This document shows positions 33,180 to 43,554 of a stretch of DNA of 64,000 bases, one piece after another. Location of the stretch: positions 26,204 through 90,203 of the forward strand of contig JAPLWQ010000003.1 in NCBI GenBank assembly GCA_026396515.1, in the 5' to 3' direction. The stretch comes from Candidatus Magasanikiibacteriota bacterium (GTDB lineage Bacteria; Patescibacteriota; Patescibacteriia; Magasanikbacterales; GWA2-37-8). The translations under genes and the position numbers were made by a program. Under the pieces are notes generated by a model. It was not told where the DNA came from. It saw only the letters and a list, made by a program, of their open reading frames with translations, and did no database searches. Positions within the stretch are counted from its first letter, which is position 1, and every line of letters begins with the position of its first letter.

Positions 33180-34739
33180 ATGAAAACAAAACCAACAGTA
33201 CTCGCGATCATGGATGGTTGGGGAATAGCGCCGATAGAAAACAAAGGTAATCCGATTACGCCAAAAAATGCGCCTAATTTTTTTTCTTGGCTGAAAAAAT
33301 ACCCGAATACTGAAATTGCCGCCAGCGGAGAATCAGTTGGGCTTTTTAAGGGCGAAGATGGCAATAGTGAAGCCGGACATATGAATTTGGGAGCCGGCCG
33401 GGTGGTACAACAAGACGCCATATATATATCTGATGCGATTGAAGATGGTACATTTTTTAAAAATCCCGCCTTTCATCAGGCCTTGCATCATTTGCACAAA
33501 TATAAGACAGCCGCCCATGTGATGGGTCTGCTATCCAATCATAACAGCGCTCATTCCTGTCCGGAGCATCTTTACGCGCTTTTGGATTTTTTACGGAGTG
33601 AGGGCGTAAAAAAGATATTCTTGCATTTGTTTACCGATGGCCGCGATTCCGGCCAGCACGACGCGCCTAAACATCTAAAAAAATTGCGCGAGCACATGAA
33701 AAATGGCGAAAAGATAGCCACTATTACCGGCCGATTTTACGCCATGGATCGCGGGAAAAACTGGGATCGCCTAAAAGGAGCTTATGAAGCAATTGTTATG
33801 GGTCGAGGTGTGCGTTGTACCGCGCACAGCGCTGAGGAAGCGATTGCCCAGGCATACAATAGCGGTGAAACGGACGAGTACATTTGCCCCACTGTGATCA
33901 TGGATGACGGTCATCCGGTTACTTCAATAAAAGATAATGATGTAATTTTTTTCTTTAATCTGCGCAGTGACCGCGCGCGTGAACTGACTAAAGCGTTTGT
34001 TCAGCCGGATTTTGAGCAAATAAATGACGGCGCTTTCCATCGTGCGTTTGTGCCGAAAAATACGCGCTTTGTTGCTATGACTGATTTTGGACCGGACCTG
34101 CCGCATGTCTTAACCGCCTATCCCAGCCGGGATGTGGTTAACAGTTTGCCGCGGGTTTTGTGTCCCCACCAACAGCTATACATCGCTGAAACAGAAAAAT
34201 TCGCCCATGTGACATATTTTTTCAACGGAGGTTATGGCCGGCATTTTTGCGACGAACGCTGGATAAAAATCGCTTCGGTTGAAGTGAAAAATTATAAAGA
34301 TCGTCCGGAAATGAGCGCTAAATTAATTACTGATGTTTTAACAAAGGCAATTGAAAAAGACGGATATGAATTTGTCTGTGTTAATTTCGCCAATCCGGAC
34401 ATGGTGGCGCATAGCGGCGATATGGAAGCAACCGCTAAAGCAATTCGCACGGTTGATACCGAGATGGCGCGTCTGATAAAAGTTGTGGAAAGACTCGACG
34501 GACAAATGATAATTACTGCTGACCACGGTAATGCCGAAGAGCTGGTTAATCTGAAAACCGGCGAAGTTGATACAGAGCATTCCACCAATCCGGTTCCGTT
34601 TATTGTTGTGGGAAAAAAATATTCAAAAAGTAAATTAAAACTGCGTAAAAACGGCAAGCTCGGCGATGTGGCGCCCACGATCCTAAAAATGATGGATATT
34701 CCAAAACCAAAGGAGATGACAGGTAAAAGTATATTTTAA
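33180..34739 (+). CDS. gpmI: 2,3-BPG-independent phosphoglycerate mutase, copy 1
   Basis: IMDGWG, GNSEAGH, FTDGRD, GRFYAMDR, AETEKFAHVT, NPDMVAH, TADHGNAE, TEHSTNPVP. Confidence 0.93.
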   Translation: MKTKPTVLAIMDGWGIAPIENKGNPITPKNAPNFFSWLKKYPNTEIAASGESVGLFKGEDGNSEAGHMNLGAGRVVQQDAIYISDAIEDGTFFKNPAFHQALHHLHKYKTAAHVMGLLSNHNSAHSCPEHLYALLDFLRSEGVKKIFLHLFTDGRDSGQHDAPKHLKKLREHMKNGEKIATITGRFYAMDRGKNWDRLKGAYEAIVMGRGVRCTAHSAEEAIAQAYNSGETDEYICPTVIMDDGHPVTSIKDNDVIFFFNLRSDRARELTKAFVQPDFEQINDGAFHRAFVPKNTRFVAMTDFGPDLPHVLTAYPSRDVVNSLPRVLCPHQQLYIAETEKFAHVTYFFNGGYGRHFCDERWIKIASVEVKNYKDRPEMSAKLITDVLTKAIEKDGYEFVCVNFANPDMVAHSGDMEATAKAIRTVDTEMARLIKVVERLDGQMIITADHGNAEELVNLKTGEVDTEHSTNPVPFIVVGKKYSKSKLKLRKNGKLGDVAPTILKMMDIPKPKEMTGKSIF

Positions 34740-34741
34740 TT

Positions 34742-36334
34742 ATGCCTCACAAACATAAACCGGTTGTCTTAATCATCCTCGACGGCTGGGGAATTGCTCC
34801 GGACGGAGAAGGCAACGCCATCGCAAAAGCCAAAACACCCAATCTGGATGATTACAAAAAAAATTATCCGGTGACGACTATTACCGCGAGCGGTACCGAG
34901 GTTGGGTTGTCATTTGGCGAAGTGGGCAATTCCGAAGTCGGCCATTTAAATATTGGCGCCGGCAGGGTGTATTATCAAACACTGCCGCGTATTGACCAGG
35001 AAATATTAAATGGAAATTTTTTTGGCAATCAGGCATTTTTATCGGCTTTTGAACACGTGAAAAAAAACAAGTCAAATCTTCATCTGATGGGGCTCGTTTC
35101 CGCCGGAAAAGTGCATTCCAGCGATGAGCACCTCCATCGGCTGCTTGAGATGGCAAAGAAAAACGGCTGTTCAAAAAATGTTTATGTTCACGCCTTTCTT
35201 GACGGCAGAGATACTTTGTATAATTCAGGCAAATATTTTATCGGGCAGTTAATAAATAAAATGCAGGAGTTAAAAACCGGCAAGCTGGCGACACTGGCCG
35301 GCCGCTATTGGGCGATGGACAGAGATAACCATTGGGACAGGATTGAAAAAGTTTTTCGGGCATTAACAGTAGGCGAAGCCGATCGGATGGCACCCGACCC
35401 GTTGCAGGCGATAGATGGCGCATACGCCAACAAAAACTATGACGAAGAATTTTTACCAACGGTTATTACCGATAAAAACGGAAAGCCCACAATTACCATT
35501 AAAGATAACGACGCCGTGATATTTTTTAATTTTCGTCCGGACCGGGCGCGTGAGATGACCAAAGCGTTCGTTTTGCCGGAGTTTGATAAGTTTCCTCATC
35601 AGGCGCTTAATAATCTGTATTTTGCGACCATGGGTGAGTATGAAAAAGATTTGCCGGTATCGGCTGTGGCTTTTCCGCCGGTTGTAATTATTAATGGTTT
35701 AGCCGAAACCGTCAGCCGGGCCGGTCTGCAACAATTTCATATTGCCGAAACTGAAAAATATGCCCACATTACATTTTTTATAAATGGCACCAGAGAGGAT
35801 CCGTTTCCCGGAGAAGACAGAAAAATTATTCCTTCGCCAAAGGTATCTTCATATGATCAGCAGCCGGAGATGTCGGCTGTTCCGGTGGCAAAAGAAACGG
35901 TCAAGGCCGTGGAAAGCGGAAAGTATGATTTTATTGCCGTAAACTTCGCCAACGCAGATATGGTCGGCCACACCGGCTTGCTTGAGCCCACAATTACGGC
36001 CTGTGAAACAATTGATGAGTGTGTCGGCAGCATCGTTGACCATGTTTTGGCCCATGAGGGCGCGGTTGTCATTACGGCCGATCACGGTAATGCCGAAGAG
36101 GTCGTAAATTTGCAGACAGGGGATATAGACAAAGAACATTCAACAAATCCCGTGCCGCTGTATATTGTCAGCCGGGATTTAATGGGGCAGGCCGGCCCGA
36201 GCGGAGACCCGCCCGAGGGGGACTTGAGTTTATTGCAGCCGGTGGGTATGCTTTCCGATGTTGCTCCGACAATTTTAAAATTAATGGGTTTGGAACAACC
36301 GCCGGAGATGACCGGCTCCAGTTTAATTCAATAG
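34742..36334 (+). CDS. gpmI: 2,3-BPG-independent phosphoglycerate mutase, copy 2
   Basis: ILDGWG, GNSEVGH, FLDGRD, GRYWAMDR, FNFRPDRARE, NADMVGH, TADHGNAE. Confidence 0.94.
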   Translation: MPHKHKPVVLIILDGWGIAPDGEGNAIAKAKTPNLDDYKKNYPVTTITASGTEVGLSFGEVGNSEVGHLNIGAGRVYYQTLPRIDQEILNGNFFGNQAFLSAFEHVKKNKSNLHLMGLVSAGKVHSSDEHLHRLLEMAKKNGCSKNVYVHAFLDGRDTLYNSGKYFIGQLINKMQELKTGKLATLAGRYWAMDRDNHWDRIEKVFRALTVGEADRMAPDPLQAIDGAYANKNYDEEFLPTVITDKNGKPTITIKDNDAVIFFNFRPDRAREMTKAFVLPEFDKFPHQALNNLYFATMGEYEKDLPVSAVAFPPVVIINGLAETVSRAGLQQFHIAETEKYAHITFFINGTREDPFPGEDRKIIPSPKVSSYDQQPEMSAVPVAKETVKAVESGKYDFIAVNFANADMVGHTGLLEPTITACETIDECVGSIVDHVLAHEGAVVITADHGNAEEVVNLQTGDIDKEHSTNPVPLYIVSRDLMGQAGPSGDPPEGDLSLLQPVGMLSDVAPTILKLMGLEQPPEMTGSSLIQ

Positions 36335-37664: not shown

Positions 37665-40316
37665 ATGAAAGAGCTGGAAAAGGCCTACGAGGCGAAGAAA
37701 TACGAAGATGGTATCTACGAAAAATGGGAAGAGTCCGGGTTGTTTAATCCGGATGTTTGCGTTGAAAAAAGCACTGCAAAAAAGGACGCGCCTATTTTTT
37801 CCATGGTTTTGCCCCCGCCGAATGTAACCGGCGTTCTGCATATGGGCCACGCCGCCATGCTTGCCATTGAAGACGCCATGATCCGCTACCACAGAATGAA
37901 GGGCGACAGGACTTTATGGCTGCCGGGCACCGACCATGCCGCCATTGCCACTCAAACCAAGGTGGAAAAGTTGCTTATGGAAAAGGGTGTGAAAGACCCG
38001 CGAGTTGAGCTTGGCCGTGAAAAATTTTTGGAAGAAGTGGATAAATTCGCCAAGGCCTCGCACGATACGATAATCAATCAGTGCAAGAAAATGGGTTCGA
38101 GTCTGGACTGGAGCAGGGAGGCGTTTACGCTGGACGAAAAAAGAAATCTGGCGGTGAGAACCGTTTTCAAAAAAATGTATGACGACGGACTGATAGAGCG
38201 CGGGTACAGAATTGTCAATTGGTGCCCTCGTTGTCACTCGACTTTGGCTGACGATGAAGTGGAATACAAGGAGCAATCGGCGAAGATTTACATCTTTAAA
38301 TATTCGGCGGACTTTCCGTTTGCTATTGCGACCACTCGGCCGGAGACAAAACTTGGCGATACAGCCGTGGCGGTAAACCCTAAAGATAAGCGATACAAAA
38401 AGTTCATTGGTAAAACTTTTAAAGTAAAGAGTTTCGCCGGTGGCGCTGATTTAAATATTGAAGTAATCGGCGACGAAGCCGTGGATATGAATTTTGGAAC
38501 TGGCGCGCTCGGTGTTACTCCGGCGCACAGCCACGTGGATTATGAAATGGCGCAAAAAAATAATTTACCGGTAATAAAAGTTATTGACGAAGACGGAAAC
38601 ATGGCGGCGGACGCCGGTACCGTTTATGCCGGGCTGTCGGTCAAAGATGCCAGAAAAAAAGTCGTGGAGAATTTACGTGTCAGCAATTTATTGGAAAAAG
38701 AAGAAGACGCGCCGAATAATTTGTCAGTTTGTTACCGCTGTGAAACGCCGATCGAACCATTACCGTCCAAGCAGTGGTTTATCAAAGTGAACAAAGAATT
38801 TCAAATGGGGCCGAGTAAAATTATGGGAATAAAAGAAGGGCAGAAAACCACCTTAAAGAAATTGATGCAGGCGGCGGTGCGTGAAGGACAGATAAAAATT
38901 ATTCCCGATCGTTTTGATAAAACATATTTTCACTGGATAGACAATCTGCATGACTGGTGTATCAGCCGTCAGATTTGGTATGGGCACCGCATTCCGGTGT
39001 GGTACAAAGGCGACCAAACTTATGTAGGCTTTGAAGCGCCAAAAGACAGCGGCTGGCAGCAGGATTCCGATACGCTGGACACTTGGTTCAGTTCCGGTCT
39101 TTGGACTTTTTCAACGCTCGGCTGGCCGGATAAGACCGATGACTTCAATAATTATCATCCGACATCTGTACTTGAAACCGGCTATGATATATTGCCGTTC
39201 TGGGTGGCGCGCATGATTCTTATGACCACCTACACGCTCGGCGACATTCCTTTTGAAACGGTTTATCTGCACGGCCTGGTGCGCGACGAACAGGGCAGAA
39301 AGATGAGCAAGTCTTTGGGCAATGTAATTGATCCGCTCGCTATGGTGGAAAAATTCGGCGCGGATGCCACGCGTTTGTCACTAATGCTCGGCAATACTCC
39401 GGGCAATGATTCCAGATTGTCCGAGGAAAAGATCGCCGGTTTCCGTAATTTTACCAACAAGCTCTGGAACATTTGCCGGTATATGATGATGCAGATTGAT
39501 TTTGAAAAAAGCGAACCGGCGAAACCGGTGACCTTGGCTGATTTTTGGATTTTAGAGCGTTTGCATGAGATTGCGTCCGATACCTCAAAACATATTGAAC
39601 AGTTCAATTTTTCTTTTGCCGGTGAGAAGCTTCGCGATTTTACCTGGAATGAGTTGGCCGATTGGTATTTGGAGATTTCCAAAATTGAAGGAAATAAATC
39701 CGGCATTCTGCAATATATTCTGGAAACGATACTTAAGCTCTGGCACCCGTTTATGCCTTTTGTCACGGAAGCGATATGGTCGGAAATACCCGGCAAGAAG
39801 TTACTTATGGCTGAAAAGTGGCCGCAGCTAAAAAAGGAAAAAATTTCAGGCAGGGTCAAGGACTTTGAGATCATAAAAAATATTATTACCAATATACGGT
39901 CTTTGCGGGCAGAATATAAAGTGGAGCCGGCAAAAAAAATTAGTGTCAGCATTGGCGCCGGAAAATTTGCGGGCCTGTTAAAGGATAATGTTGAAATTCT
40001 TCAGGGACTGGCAAGAATTGAAAAAATACAAATAGACAAGTCAATGAAAAAACCGGGTAATTCGGTCGGCTTTTTGGAAAGCGGGGTGGAAGTGTTTATT
40101 GATCTCTCCGGTCTGGTTGATTTTGCCAAAGAAAAAATTCGTCTGCAGAAAGAAATCGGCGAGGTGGAGCCGTATATCGCCGTGTTGAAAAAGAAGCTAT
40201 CAAACAAGGAATTTGTAAAAAATGCGCCAAAAGAAATTGTGGCAAATGAGAATGCAAAACTGGCCGAGGCTGAAGAGATGCTCGCCAAGTTAAATGACCA
40301 ACTAAAATCAATTTAA
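37665..40316 (+). CDS. valS: Valyl-tRNA synthetase
   Basis: PPPNVTG.LHMGHA, WCISRQIWYGHRIP, KMSKS, C-terminal coiled coil; ATG at 37665. Confidence 0.97.
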   Translation: MKELEKAYEAKKYEDGIYEKWEESGLFNPDVCVEKSTAKKDAPIFSMVLPPPNVTGVLHMGHAAMLAIEDAMIRYHRMKGDRTLWLPGTDHAAIATQTKVEKLLMEKGVKDPRVELGREKFLEEVDKFAKASHDTIINQCKKMGSSLDWSREAFTLDEKRNLAVRTVFKKMYDDGLIERGYRIVNWCPRCHSTLADDEVEYKEQSAKIYIFKYSADFPFAIATTRPETKLGDTAVAVNPKDKRYKKFIGKTFKVKSFAGGADLNIEVIGDEAVDMNFGTGALGVTPAHSHVDYEMAQKNNLPVIKVIDEDGNMAADAGTVYAGLSVKDARKKVVENLRVSNLLEKEEDAPNNLSVCYRCETPIEPLPSKQWFIKVNKEFQMGPSKIMGIKEGQKTTLKKLMQAAVREGQIKIIPDRFDKTYFHWIDNLHDWCISRQIWYGHRIPVWYKGDQTYVGFEAPKDSGWQQDSDTLDTWFSSGLWTFSTLGWPDKTDDFNNYHPTSVLETGYDILPFWVARMILMTTYTLGDIPFETVYLHGLVRDEQGRKMSKSLGNVIDPLAMVEKFGADATRLSLMLGNTPGNDSRLSEEKIAGFRNFTNKLWNICRYMMMQIDFEKSEPAKPVTLADFWILERLHEIASDTSKHIEQFNFSFAGEKLRDFTWNELADWYLEISKIEGNKSGILQYILETILKLWHPFMPFVTEAIWSEIPGKKLLMAEKWPQLKKEKISGRVKDFEIIKNIITNIRSLRAEYKVEPAKKISVSIGAGKFAGLLKDNVEILQGLARIEKIQIDKSMKKPGNSVGFLESGVEVFIDLSGLVDFAKEKIRLQKEIGEVEPYIAVLKKKLSNKEFVKNAPKEIVANENAKLAEAEEMLAKLNDQLKSI

Positions 40317-40317
40317 T

Positions 40318-41298
40318 ATGTCCGAATTCGCCAAAGTAAATCCTGGTGATATATCCCCTAAACAAGAAAAAGAGCCCGAAACAGTATTGTCTCCCAAAGA
40401 TAATGCCCGCCTTATTAATATCCTTAAAAGAGCCAAAGCGGCTGAAGCAGATGAAGACACTATGCTCGCCATCCGGCTGTATGAAGAGTATCTTGAAGAG
40501 TTTGAAAAGATCAAAAGAGACGGACCATCACCTGAAACTCCTTCAGATCCTAACATTATCATTGCTACCAATCCTGAAGGAAAAGAAGTATCTATTAATT
40601 TAGAATCCACCCTTCTTAATTCAAAGTATCTGTACGCCATTAACAATTTGACGAAATTCTCCGATGCCCTTCCCGAAACCATTACTCTATCTGAATCATC
40701 TCTGGCCCGTTGCCGTGAAGCCCTGGAACAGGGTTTTGATAAAGCCATCTTTTTCCCCAACCTGGAAGTACAGCTTGAAAAAGTTGGCATAACCAAATTA
40801 AAACAAGAGCTGGCTGACAAACCCTTGCCTAAGGGTACTTTTCCAGATGAAAAAGATAACTATTCTAGGGAATCTTATCTGCAAAACCCTATTGCTGAAA
40901 ATCATTCTCTCACTGAATCAGCCCAAGCTAAAAGAAAGAATGGCTATCTTCTTTTCTACTCGTCCAATCCAGTACCCAAAGAAACTAAAAACCTCACCTT
41001 CCCTGAAGCCGTACAATACCTTAAAGACAAAAACCTGGATGGTCTCACCTTGCCCGAATATTACATCCTCCAAAGAAAAGAAGCTGAAATTAACGAAGAC
41101 CACTCTTTTGATGCCTACAATGATGACGCGGATCAATCCAATTCGACTTGGCTAATTGACTCTCGCGCGCCCGGGGGCTGCGTGCGCGCGGTCTGGAATC
41201 CGGACGATCGGCGGGTGGTTGTGTACTGGAGCGGTGCCGGGAATCAGTACTCGGATTTGGGGGCGCGCCCCGCGATCGTTGTGCCCTTAGAACTTTAG
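40318..41298 (+). CDS. Hypothetical protein with a C-terminal DGR variable-region-like (CLec-type) end
   Basis: Ends STWL...VWNPDDRRVVVYWSGAGNQYSDLGARP; abrupt compositional switch at about 41161 (70% GC, 10% A over 120 nt). Confidence 0.72.
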   Translation: MSEFAKVNPGDISPKQEKEPETVLSPKDNARLINILKRAKAAEADEDTMLAIRLYEEYLEEFEKIKRDGPSPETPSDPNIIIATNPEGKEVSINLESTLLNSKYLYAINNLTKFSDALPETITLSESSLARCREALEQGFDKAIFFPNLEVQLEKVGITKLKQELADKPLPKGTFPDEKDNYSRESYLQNPIAENHSLTESAQAKRKNGYLLFYSSNPVPKETKNLTFPEAVQYLKDKNLDGLTLPEYYILQRKEAEINEDHSFDAYNDDADQSNSTWLIDSRAPGGCVRAVWNPDDRRVVVYWSGAGNQYSDLGARPAIVVPLEL

Positions 41299-41323
41299 TC
41301 TTTAAGCTCTAACCTCTCATTTT

Positions 41324-41364
41324 GTCATTGCGAGGACCCGCCTTTGGCGGGGACGAAGCAATCT
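41324..41364. repeat. REP-like palindromic element GTCATTGCGAG...GAAGCAATCT with an inner CCCGCC-TTT-GGCGGG hairpin
   Basis: ATTGC/GCAAT outer stem and 6-bp GC inner stem, 25 nt after the stop of the DGR-like gene. Confidence 0.6.
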
Positions 41365-41408
41365 TTATTCCTTAATCTTTTCCGAAATTTGTAAACATAA
41401 CGCCATTT

Positions 41409-42590
41409 ATGAAAATAAACACTGACCCCAAAAAAATTGAAGAAGTGCTGTCGCGCGGCGTGGAACAGGTCGTCGACAAAAATCACCTTGCGGAGAAATT
41501 AAAGTCCGGAAAACAATTACGCGTAAAATTAGGCGTTGACCCGACAAGTCCGAATATTCATTTGGGCCGTTCAATTCCGCTTCTTAAACTGCGCGACTTT
41601 CAGGAGTTGGGGCATCAAATCGTGTTAATCGTCGGTGATTTTACCGGAGTGATCGGAGATACTTCAGACAAGGACAGCGAACGGCCGATGCTTACACACG
41701 AACAGGTTAAAGCGAATATGGAAGGATATTTTGAACAGGCGGCCCGGGTAATTGATATCCGCAAGTGCGAAAAATATTACAACAGCGAATGGCTGGGAAA
41801 ACTTAATTATCATGAAATCGGCGAGCAGGCCGACCAATTTTCAGTGGCGGAGTTTATCGCCCGCGAAAATATAAAAAAGCGCTTAGAGGGCGGTACGCGC
41901 GTTTCTCTGCGCGAAGTGCTTTATCCTCTGATGCAGGGTTATGATAGCGTGGCCATGAAAGCCGATGTGGAACTGGGCGGCACGGATCAGTGGTTTAATT
42001 TATTGGCCGGAAGAAAATTGCAGGAACATTACAAGCAGGAGCCGCAGGATATTTTAGTCGGTCCGTTGCTTGAAGGCACTGACGGCCGCAAGATGAGCAG
42101 CAGCTGGGGTAATACCATTAATCTCCTGGCCGAACCAAACGACATGTTTGGAAAAATAATGTCAATTCCGGACGGGTTGATTATTAAATATTTTACTCTG
42201 GCGACCCGCGCGCCGATGGCGGACATCGCGTTGTATGAAAAAGAAATAAAATCAGGCGGTAATCCGCGCGATTATAAAATAAAATTGGCTGAATACTTAA
42301 CAAGCGTGTATCACGGTGATAAAGAAGCCAAGAAAGCGCTGGAATATTTTGTCAGCACGTTCAGTAAAAAGGAGATTCCTGATGAAATGCCGGAAGTGTC
42401 GGCGCGAGATATTGCAAGCGCGCTGGTGGAATCAAAAATTTGCAAAAGCAAATCAGAAGCGCGCCAGGTGATTGACCAGGGCGGAGTGAAAATTAATGAA
42501 ATTAAAGTTGAAGCGGGTGATTATGCCGCCGCTGTTAAGGCCGGCGATATTGTTCAAAAAGGCAGCCGGTGGTTTGTAAGAATAAAATAG
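41409..42590 (+). CDS. tyrS: Tyrosyl-tRNA synthetase
   Basis: KLGVDPTSPNIHLG, YPLMQGYDS, GGTDQ.FN, KMSSS, S4-like C-terminus. Confidence 0.97.
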   Translation: MKINTDPKKIEEVLSRGVEQVVDKNHLAEKLKSGKQLRVKLGVDPTSPNIHLGRSIPLLKLRDFQELGHQIVLIVGDFTGVIGDTSDKDSERPMLTHEQVKANMEGYFEQAARVIDIRKCEKYYNSEWLGKLNYHEIGEQADQFSVAEFIARENIKKRLEGGTRVSLREVLYPLMQGYDSVAMKADVELGGTDQWFNLLAGRKLQEHYKQEPQDILVGPLLEGTDGRKMSSSWGNTINLLAEPNDMFGKIMSIPDGLIIKYFTLATRAPMADIALYEKEIKSGGNPRDYKIKLAEYLTSVYHGDKEAKKALEYFVSTFSKKEIPDEMPEVSARDIASALVESKICKSKSEARQVIDQGGVKINEIKVEAGDYAAAVKAGDIVQKGSRWFVRIK

Positions 42591-42597
42591 CAAATTT

Positions 42598-43554
42598 GTG
42601 GACAATAAATTGGTTATCTGTATTTTCCTTTTTTCCGCCATGCTGCTGGGCGGTTTTGGTTGTGAAAAGAAAGAAACGCCGGTAATAGCGAGAAGCGAAA
42701 AAATTCCTCAAAGCGCGGTAAAAATTTCGCCACAAGCCGATTTATCGCCGCCAATATTGCATTCAAAAGAATTTGACATGCCGGTACCTGTGTCCGGGCC
42801 GATTAATACTGCCGGAGCGGAAGATTCGCCGTTCATTACGCCCGATGGCAACACACTATATTTTTTCTTTACGCCTGACCCGAACATTCCGGCTGAAAAA
42901 CAGTTGAATGACGGTGTTACAGGCATTTATGTGTCAGAGAATGTGAATGGCAAGTGGAGCGAACCAAAAAGAGTGATTTTGGAAAGGCCCGGGGAATCCG
43001 CGCTTGACGGTTGTGAGTTCGTGAAAGGCGATGTAATGTGGTTTTGCTCGGCCAGAGAAGGATACACCGGAATAAATTTATTTACTGCTAAAAAGATTAA
43101 TAACGGGTGGGGCGGCGTAAAGTATGCGGGCGATGTGCTGATGAAAGATTATCAGGTCGGTGAGATGCATATTACGGCTGACGGGAATGAAATGTATTTT
43201 CATTCTCCGCAAGCGGGAGGAAAAGGCCAATTAGATATTTGGGTGATGAAAAAAGTTAATGATGAATGGCAGGCGCCTGAAAATGTGACAGCAGTCAATA
43301 CAGCGGAAAATGACGGCTGGCCGTTTATTTCAGAAGACGGCAATGAACTGTGGTTTCTGCGGACATATCGAGGGTCGCCGGCGATTTTCAGATCAAAGAA
43401 AGCGGACGGTGTTTGGCAGAAGCCGGAGCTGATCGTATCGCAGTTTGCCGGCGAGCCGACTTTGGACAGGGCCGGAAATATGTATTTTGTCCATCATTAT
43501 TATAAAAACGGAAAAATGCTGGAGGCCGATATTTATATGGCCAGGAAAAAATAA
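42598..43554 (+). CDS. Putative lipoprotein with PD40/TolB-like beta-propeller repeats
   Basis: LGGFGC lipobox-like; repeated INT..AEDSPFITPDGNTLYF and NT.ENDGWPFISEDGNELWF. Confidence 0.8.
   Translation: MDNKLVICIFLFSAMLLGGFGCEKKETPVIARSEKIPQSAVKISPQADLSPPILHSKEFDMPVPVSGPINTAGAEDSPFITPDGNTLYFFFTPDPNIPAEKQLNDGVTGIYVSENVNGKWSEPKRVILERPGESALDGCEFVKGDVMWFCSAREGYTGINLFTAKKINNGWGGVKYAGDVLMKDYQVGEMHITADGNEMYFHSPQAGGKGQLDIWVMKKVNDEWQAPENVTAVNTAENDGWPFISEDGNELWFLRTYRGSPAIFRSKKADGVWQKPELIVSQFAGEPTLDRAGNMYFVHHYYKNGKMLEADIYMARKK

Follow-up and report, generated by a model that had tools for sequence, protein, structure and literature searches.

By its sequence signature and its predicted fold, the gene that separates valS from tyrS in the 64,000-nt stretch of DNA analysed here (the window) is a target of a diversity-generating retroelement (DGR), an enzyme system that hypermutates the tips of binding proteins, but it is not part of a complete one: template (TR), RT and Avd were not found in the assembly. 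Its final 40 or so codons are likely to have been written by a DGR. We consider it probable that this gene is a recently orphaned, laterally acquired DGR target that is now fixed on one binding variant and whose body is under purifying selection. The initial annotation of this DNA had proposed a DGR-type variable gene, and this part of the proposal is supported: the homologues sit in complete DGRs and carry adenine-specific changes. The features discussed below are collected in Table 1.

Table 1. Features of the variable-protein gene, its surroundings and the two genes that share its leader (window positions unless a contig is given).
Feature	Position	Strand	Remarks
Lineage-specific insert, 1092 nt	40317..41408	+	valS stop 40316, tyrS ATG 41409; TATG at each junction
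DGR-type variable-protein gene	40318..41298	+	326 aa; 14 homologues; 301 profile matches at E<=0.001
67-codon leader	40318..40518	+	disordered start, then predicted helical hairpin (residues 26-44, 48-68)
Predicted C-type-lectin (FGE-type) domain	40705..41289	+	about residues 130-324, AlphaFold2
Variable region (VR)	41161..41283	+	adenine-poor 3' end; family template-adenine sites mapped
Family template-adenine sites	41186, 41191-2, 41197-8, 41206-7, 41213, 41218-9, 41224-5, 41230-1, 41234, 41242-3, 41248-9, 41254-5	+	21 sites
Pyrimidine tract past the stop	41299..41323	+	weakened form of the clade's T-rich tract
REP-like palindromic repeat arm, TGTC tag	41324..41363	+	40 nt, GTCATTGCGAG...GAAGCAATC
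Full-length paralog (L003)	C2:75674-76651	-	78% aa identity to the window protein
Leader-sharing gene (L005)	C5:237931-238960	+	first 67 codons shared, then a different DGR head family

The VR lies at the 3' end of the gene, as in DGR target genes, and the encoded protein ends in ...VWNPDDRRVVVYWSGAGNQYSDLGARPAIVVPLEL. Positions 41161-41280 contain 12 A at a GC content of 0.70 as compared to 39 A and 0.425 in the preceding segment (41041-41160), and the hand counts made earlier were exact on recount. Among all 120-nt segments on both strands of the genome, which contain 33.4 A on average, only 0.22% have twelve or fewer. Moreover, when 767 ORFs (at least 120 aa, from a greedy ORF set made for this analysis) were ranked by their 3' loss of adenine, the window ORF came first (-0.243 vs a mean of -0.029, sd 0.058), followed at ranks two and three by the two other genes that start with the same leader. 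The third codon positions of the VR differ from those of the gene body: GC3 is 0.80 vs 0.37, and none of the 31 eligible VR codons ends in A vs 39% in the body. At the 21 family template-adenine sites, i. e. those with A in at least 80% of the family templates, the window has 12 changes (8 to G, 4 to T) and keeps A at nine, while 44 of the 51 conserved non-A template sites are matched (41-51 in the linked VRs). At the seven positions where an AAY codon is near-invariant, the window VR always has a pyrimidine as the third base. The eight codons that had been listed as putatively variable are all of the NNY form that was claimed for them; however, the template codon to which GGT at 41233 aligns is of the GAN type rather than AAY in most relatives, and one more variable codon, CGC at 41185, was missing from the list.

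The relatives of the gene are hypervariable at the same columns as the window VR. We fetched 44 loci (L007-L050), 14 from genomes and 30 from metagenomes, many of which hold complete cassettes, usually made up of the target, the TR, an antisense avd, an RT with a YNDD motif and a vWA protein; an AAA_5 ATPase is often encoded upstream of the target or fused to it. In L007, L009, L011, L013-L015, L017 and L018, the RT carries the YNDD motif. These loci have an antisense avd between TR and RT, and 3' of the RT they encode a large protein, with a transglutaminase plus a vWA domain in the two that were scanned. The VR/TR counts cover 15 distinct TRs and 41 distinct VRs, the window and its full-length paralog on contig C2 included; L029, L033, L038 and L040 (which repeat the sequences of other loci) and L043, L044, L047, L049 and L050 (no fit to the VR/TR motif) were left out. 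In 18 same-locus VR/TR pairs, there are 264 changes at template adenines (192 of them to G) and eight elsewhere. VRs that share a locus differ at no or one third position (four pairs/loci), and real TRs have 0-3 third-position adenines. The complete cassette closest to the window is L024 (70% identity over residues 186-326), but it is not the cognate one: its TR shows 16 non-A differences from the window VR and nine from the VR of the C2 paralog. No cognate TR was recovered, as even the best of the 15 TRs has 16 non-A mismatches to the window VR, and the window was compared with the family map of adenine sites. The proteins P0003 and P0008, encoded on 89-kb JGI contig(s), have the GGCVRA start of the VR in common with the window gene, P0008 also the QY motif, and may be linked to the cognate template lineage.

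The GC-rich tail might also have nothing to do with a DGR. As the genome has dispersed REP-like repeats, it might instead be a palindromic repeat that is read in frame, or a patch of unusual composition that arose by chance. We regard this as extremely improbable: the tail aligns codon for codon with the 15 templates and with 39 other VRs, it contains no REP tag and makes up the strands predicted at the C-terminus of the domain, and the cognate VR/TR pairs in homologues refute the idea.

The window protein has no Pfam match above the cut-off. Its AlphaFold2 model (mean pLDDT 82.5) contains a domain of the C-type-lectin (CLec) type, and the VR corresponds to the C-terminal strands predicted for this domain. 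The top match in VIA-align is EgtB (6o6l, Z 8.3), and the variable proteins Mtd of the Bordetella phage (1yu0, Z 8.2, rmsd 3.1, 116 aligned), TvpA of Treponema denticola (2y3c, Z 8.0, rmsd 3.5, 137 aligned) and TaqVP of Thermus aquaticus (5vf4, Z 6.1, rmsd 3.8, 140 aligned) are among the matches; going by their titles, we take all top 14 to be of the CLec/FGE type. In Foldseek, there was no match at E<=0.001, C-type lectins nevertheless headed the list. Since Z values near 8 are middling by themselves, the fold call relies on the agreement among the top matches. Thus, the CLec fold that had been anticipated for the C-terminal region agrees with the prediction. With Mtd, TvpA and TaqVP the window protein shares the predicted CLec/FGE-type fold and the C-terminal position of the variable segment, whereas the identity to these proteins is 10-15% and the Z values are 6-8 only.

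The insertion between valS and tyrS, which had been suggested from the window alone, is evident from the comparison with five congeneric genomes (G001-G005): the two genes are direct neighbours in all five, and the valS stop and the tyrS start overlap in G005, G001 and G003. The ATG of the variable gene is located one base past the valS stop, and translational coupling to valS is therefore likely. The valS junction is supported by a 141-nt contig that spans positions 40228-40368 with zero differences; it comes from public-run data (contigs from four runs of a single study; share of words 0.10-0.19; no RNA run among those that matched) and may originate from the source campaign of this genome. 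None of these contigs covers positions 41076-41297. The window protein was not found in the 36 family genomes sampled, and it is present in nine of 400 other genomes of the class (E<=1e-8), a distribution that fits a lateral gain. As two copies start one base past the stop of a core gene, we considered a DGR-specific "start-codon capture"; this is not special, however, and an ATG lies 1-7 nt past the upstream stop in five of 15 other gaps that, through gain or loss, are specific to the host genome (G000) relative to G005. In the same part of the window, a PD40 beta-propeller gene (42598-43554) between tyrS and argS is present in G005 but not in G001-G004. Two tandem genes at 33180-36334, which from their sequence we take to resemble cofactor-independent phosphoglycerate mutases, are kept in the congeners examined.

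The pyrimidine tract and the GC hairpin that had been described past the stop codon are both present. The heptamer tract (41299-41319) reads TCTTTAA-GCTCTAA-CCTCTCA. In the 30 nt past the stop or repeat, there are 14 T in the window, 18.75 on average in 40 VRs and 9.2 in 14 TRs; the mean after 820 genes of the genome is 9.3, and 10% of them reach 14. Thus, the conserved downstream feature of the targets of this clade is a T-rich tract, which is weak in the window, and our guess is that this tract plays a part in retrohoming. For the hairpin CCCGCC-TTT-GGCGGG (41337-41351), on the other hand, a cis function in the DGR is not supported. This hairpin occupies the variable centre of a 40-nt REP-like repeat that is dispersed over the genome and whose tag GTCATTGCGAG has 16 copies, with differing centres and several as inverted pairs, and only four of 18 template-linked targets have a perfect stem of at least five G-C pairs no more than 130 nt from the stop. 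When folded as DNA, the stability of 41290-41410 was not above that of shuffled sequences (z -0.48), and there was no Rfam match within 40200-41500. The same repeat is located 3' of the target stop in L021 and L022; since L022 has another centre and yet the same 3' flank, the repeat has probably travelled with the gene. As a short tagged palindromic arm that is dispersed and often forms head-to-head dimers, it resembles the CGTC/TGTC-tagged REPs, which include the Rickettsia elements RPE-4 and RPE-6 (Di Nocera et al. 2013, PMC3733652). The GC-rich inverted repeat that follows the IMH in Bordetella, as described by Wu et al. (2018, PMC5758913), is not conserved in the clade of the window.

Our analysis has identified two further genes in G000 that share the leader of the window gene at about 89-90% DNA identity. 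The leader has a dN/dS of 0.07-0.10 across the three pairings; a search with residues 1-75 (in proteins of 179-571 aa only) returned just the two full-length G000 proteins, and among the fetched proteins there were weak matches to P0052, P0102 and P0013. The bodies of the window gene and the C2 paralog are separated by a dS of 0.62 at a dN/dS of 0.20; for comparison, dS is 1.06 between tyrS and its counterpart in G005. The VR of the C2 paralog is nearer to the L024 template; at a single AAY site its third base is not a pyrimidine, and only six T follow in 30 nt, i. e. the T-tract is lost. The C5 copy is inserted between rpoD and a murG-like gene, which are adjacent in all five congeners, and its ATG is also one base past the upstream stop. 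Its VR contains what appears to be a short duplication, and there is a frameshift near codon 137-144, which may be real or due to misassembly. The VRs of the window gene and the C2 paralog differ at 37 of 87 nt, with 14 of these differences at third positions; compared to the no or one third-position difference in same-locus pairs, this argues that one hidden template cannot serve both. To judge from these sequences, the two VRs come from different templates or have drifted after the loss. Of the three VR genes, no more than one could thus be served by a hidden cassette. Non-adenine mutagenesis was considered for the third-position differences and rejected: the cognate pairs are adenine-specific, and different templates or drift suffice.

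A fourth head of the window type is fused to an AAA_5 ATPase (C5:107922-110177) and has a tail without VR signature. The AAA_5, vWA-type and small-gene module to which this region belongs (C5:107922-112662) is inserted past a mreB-like gene and is absent from G005; an obligate link of the variable genes to such a module found no support, as the G000 ATPase query matched just one of five genomes tested. In the surroundings of the C2 paralog (C2:75100-83900, minus strand), there are six same-strand terminator-like hairpins (ACGGCA-GAGA-TGCCGT plus a T run), several of which precede a TGATAAT promoter-like motif and a small ORF, so that the paralog is contained in a cassette-like array. Outside G000, P0009 (L023), which has a window-type head, and L141 (G121), which has a head of the C5 type, have a leader in common (37% identity, E 4e-23); this appears to be an independent case of one coiled-coil-like leader that carries either head family. 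In a wider interpretation, the RT-free genome would maintain a library of pre-diversified binding heads from at least three absent templates on one conserved docking leader, and diversity would be provided by the import and swapping of finished heads and by passing DGR islands that rewrite them, not by a retroelement of its own. We regard this as clearly unlikely.

No DGR machinery was detected in the host assembly (966 kb in five contigs, C1-C5; completeness given as 100%). There was no RT by PF00078 profile search, the clade RTs of nine relatives gave a best E of 0.079 against the assembly, and the RT of L024, which has matches in 44 of the 99 family genomes and in three of the five congeners, has none in G000. 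Likewise, no Avd was found in the assembly with the PF22296 profile and six Avd queries from related cassettes; as a positive control, the Pfam models pick up the RT and Avd of the clade above cut-off. Finally, the assembly contains no template according to an adenine-tolerant scan with the VRs of all three genes and to a search with the template pattern with two mismatches allowed. The absence of TR and RT from the window, as first noted, thus extends to all five contigs, and the search of the whole genome that had been proposed for a repeat that differs only at adenines and lies beside an RT or Avd found none in them. G000 has 622 reciprocal best hits with its closest congener G005 (mean identity 78%), and the synteny places all five contigs in a single order, so that little seems to be missing. 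Where G005 carries its own DGR, which is unrelated, the corresponding site of G000 is empty. The joins in this order are located at the 16S rRNA, at a DT-repeat gene, in a repetitive surface-protein region, at fusA and, between the end of C1 and the start of C3, in a recombinase island next to tRNA-Asn. The overlaps of the contig ends are imperfect (C1/C3 recombinase 91.7%, C2/C3 fusA 82% and C1/C4 16S 84% identity), which suggests noisy or chimeric ends.

Could the VR still be rewritten in trans? A DGR cassette in an unassembled part of the chromosome, most plausibly in the C1/C3 recombinase island, would be sufficient. The main evidence for this idea is the absence of synonymous drift in the VR together with a finding in a single metagenome, where the TR of L024 is matched without any non-A difference by two VRs from other contigs, those of L021 and L025. 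These matches make remote targeting plausible in the closest subfamily. A cross-contig VR/TR match was also found in G146; both cases may, however, reflect broken assemblies. Part of the T-tract is retained in the window, the imperfect contig overlaps include one at an island, and the DGRs in L014, L017 and L018 adjoin ORFs that look recombinase-like from their sequence. The five assembly joins, with one in a recombinase island, together with this neighbourhood of the clade's DGRs thus speak against orphaning. Moreover, remote targets are described in PMC5758913 and PMC7517822. On the other side, distances above 100 kb between target and DGR were found in PMC5758913 for Lineage 4 and neighbouring lineages only. 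We judge active diversification from such a cassette to be unlikely, given that the synteny with G005 and the stated completeness leave little room for it and that a single hidden TR could serve just one of the three VR genes. The initial annotation had left the choice between diversification in trans and orphaning; orphaning is to be preferred, since the genome has no RT and the paralogous VRs need different templates.

Retrohoming requires close identity between VR and TR. This bears on another possibility, i. e. that the gene remains competent and is rewritten intermittently, only during the passage of an integrative element with the cognate DGR through the lineage, or only in those members of the population that have such an element. 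The patchy occurrence of the DGR RT in the family (the 44 of 99 genomes mentioned above), the unrelated targets and differing sites of the DGRs in the congeners, and a VR that is fresh despite the absence of the machinery are in agreement with this idea. However, the visitor would have to carry the very template lineage of the window gene, because of the identity that retrohoming requires, and no cognate template is present in the assembly, in G005 (zero tblastn matches) or in viral contigs (no relative by protein and no match by the VR/TR pattern). Intermittent rewriting is therefore very unlikely in our opinion.

Thus, recent orphaning remains the preferred reading, and a line of five steps can be envisaged. 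First, cassettes of the order target-TR-antisense avd-RT (YNDD) rewrite the same region at template adenines in the relatives. Second, the window copy would have been rewritten likewise; its template, which was not recovered, would belong to this clade as well. Third, the gene, the T-tract and the REP arm together form an insert at the valS-tyrS junction that is not found in the congeners; the gene has presumably arrived laterally and may be read from the host operon through translational coupling. Fourth, the separation from the template would be recent on the synonymous clock, as the VR has not drifted to the codon bias of the gene: with none of 31 eligible codons ending in A, at most about 23% of the VR third positions would have re-equilibrated (95% bound), and the loss of the template is thus recent or incomplete. 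Fifth, the gene body has diverged from that of its paralog under purifying selection, and the protein probably still binds a ligand through its head. The shared helical leader would serve for attachment or assembly and would thus stand in for the AAA_5 ATPase to which this head is joined in other genes. The paralogs show decay, as judged from the lost T-tract on C2 and the frameshift and VR duplication in the C5 copy. A likely route to orphaning can be seen in L008 (8092-8212), where the VR of a second target is joined straight to the end of avd: the template is gone whereas avd and RT remain, and this looks like a deletion by recombination between VR and TR.

How does this gene compare to known systems? 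A CPR clade of DGRs (clade 2) and modular targets are described by Roux et al. (2021, PMC8144416), and a "CPR set", P-loop NTPase targets and remote targets at more than 100 kb by Wu et al. (2018, PMC5758913); the fusion of CLec to an AAA ATPase is given as the commonest CPR architecture in PMC10907252, which cites Paul et al. 2017. In terms of these descriptions, the window gene resembles the DGR variable proteins of CPR/Patescibacteria in its 3' VR, the adenine-specific signature as judged from the family map, the predicted CLec fold, the lack of a recognisable Pfam domain, and in the fusion of the same head to AAA_5 in relatives. In contrast to CPR DGR systems, its assembly has no RT, Avd or TR, and the gene stands alone with a short helical leader and is inserted in a core tRNA-synthetase operon. 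For cyanobacteria, Vallota-Eastman et al. (2020, PMC7517822) report remote variable proteins, their paralogs, and all3226, which retains a remnant of TR-VR homology but has no RT in its vicinity; they also suggest that the machinery disappears after a variant has been selected. As in this case, the paralogs in G000 are dispersed, have VR signatures and consist of grafted N- and C-terminal modules. Two differences from the cyanobacterial proteins of that description are that those genomes were chosen for having a DGR, whereas the whole assembly is without one here, and that the part common to the G000 genes is the N-terminal leader while the heads differ. Thus, remote and remnant DGR targets are already known; what is added here is a set of three genes with one leader and several templates in a genome without detectable RT. 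In the literature, we found no account of the loss of DGR target genes or machinery in Magasanikbacteria; supplementary files may list such orphans.

Live variation among the reads would be truly surprising if it were seen in an RT-free genome that has been closed, and nothing here shows such variation. As surveys start from the RT, and an RT-centred approach would not detect remote targets according to PMC8144416, genes of this kind are missed and the DGR-derived proteins of the CPR are undercounted. Moreover, the three genes with one leader and different heads suggest that the place of action of the heads can be read from the leader. The window gene provides a clean example of what a DGR leaves behind when the retroelement goes: a predicted binding gene that stays in a core operon and bears a record of purifying selection.
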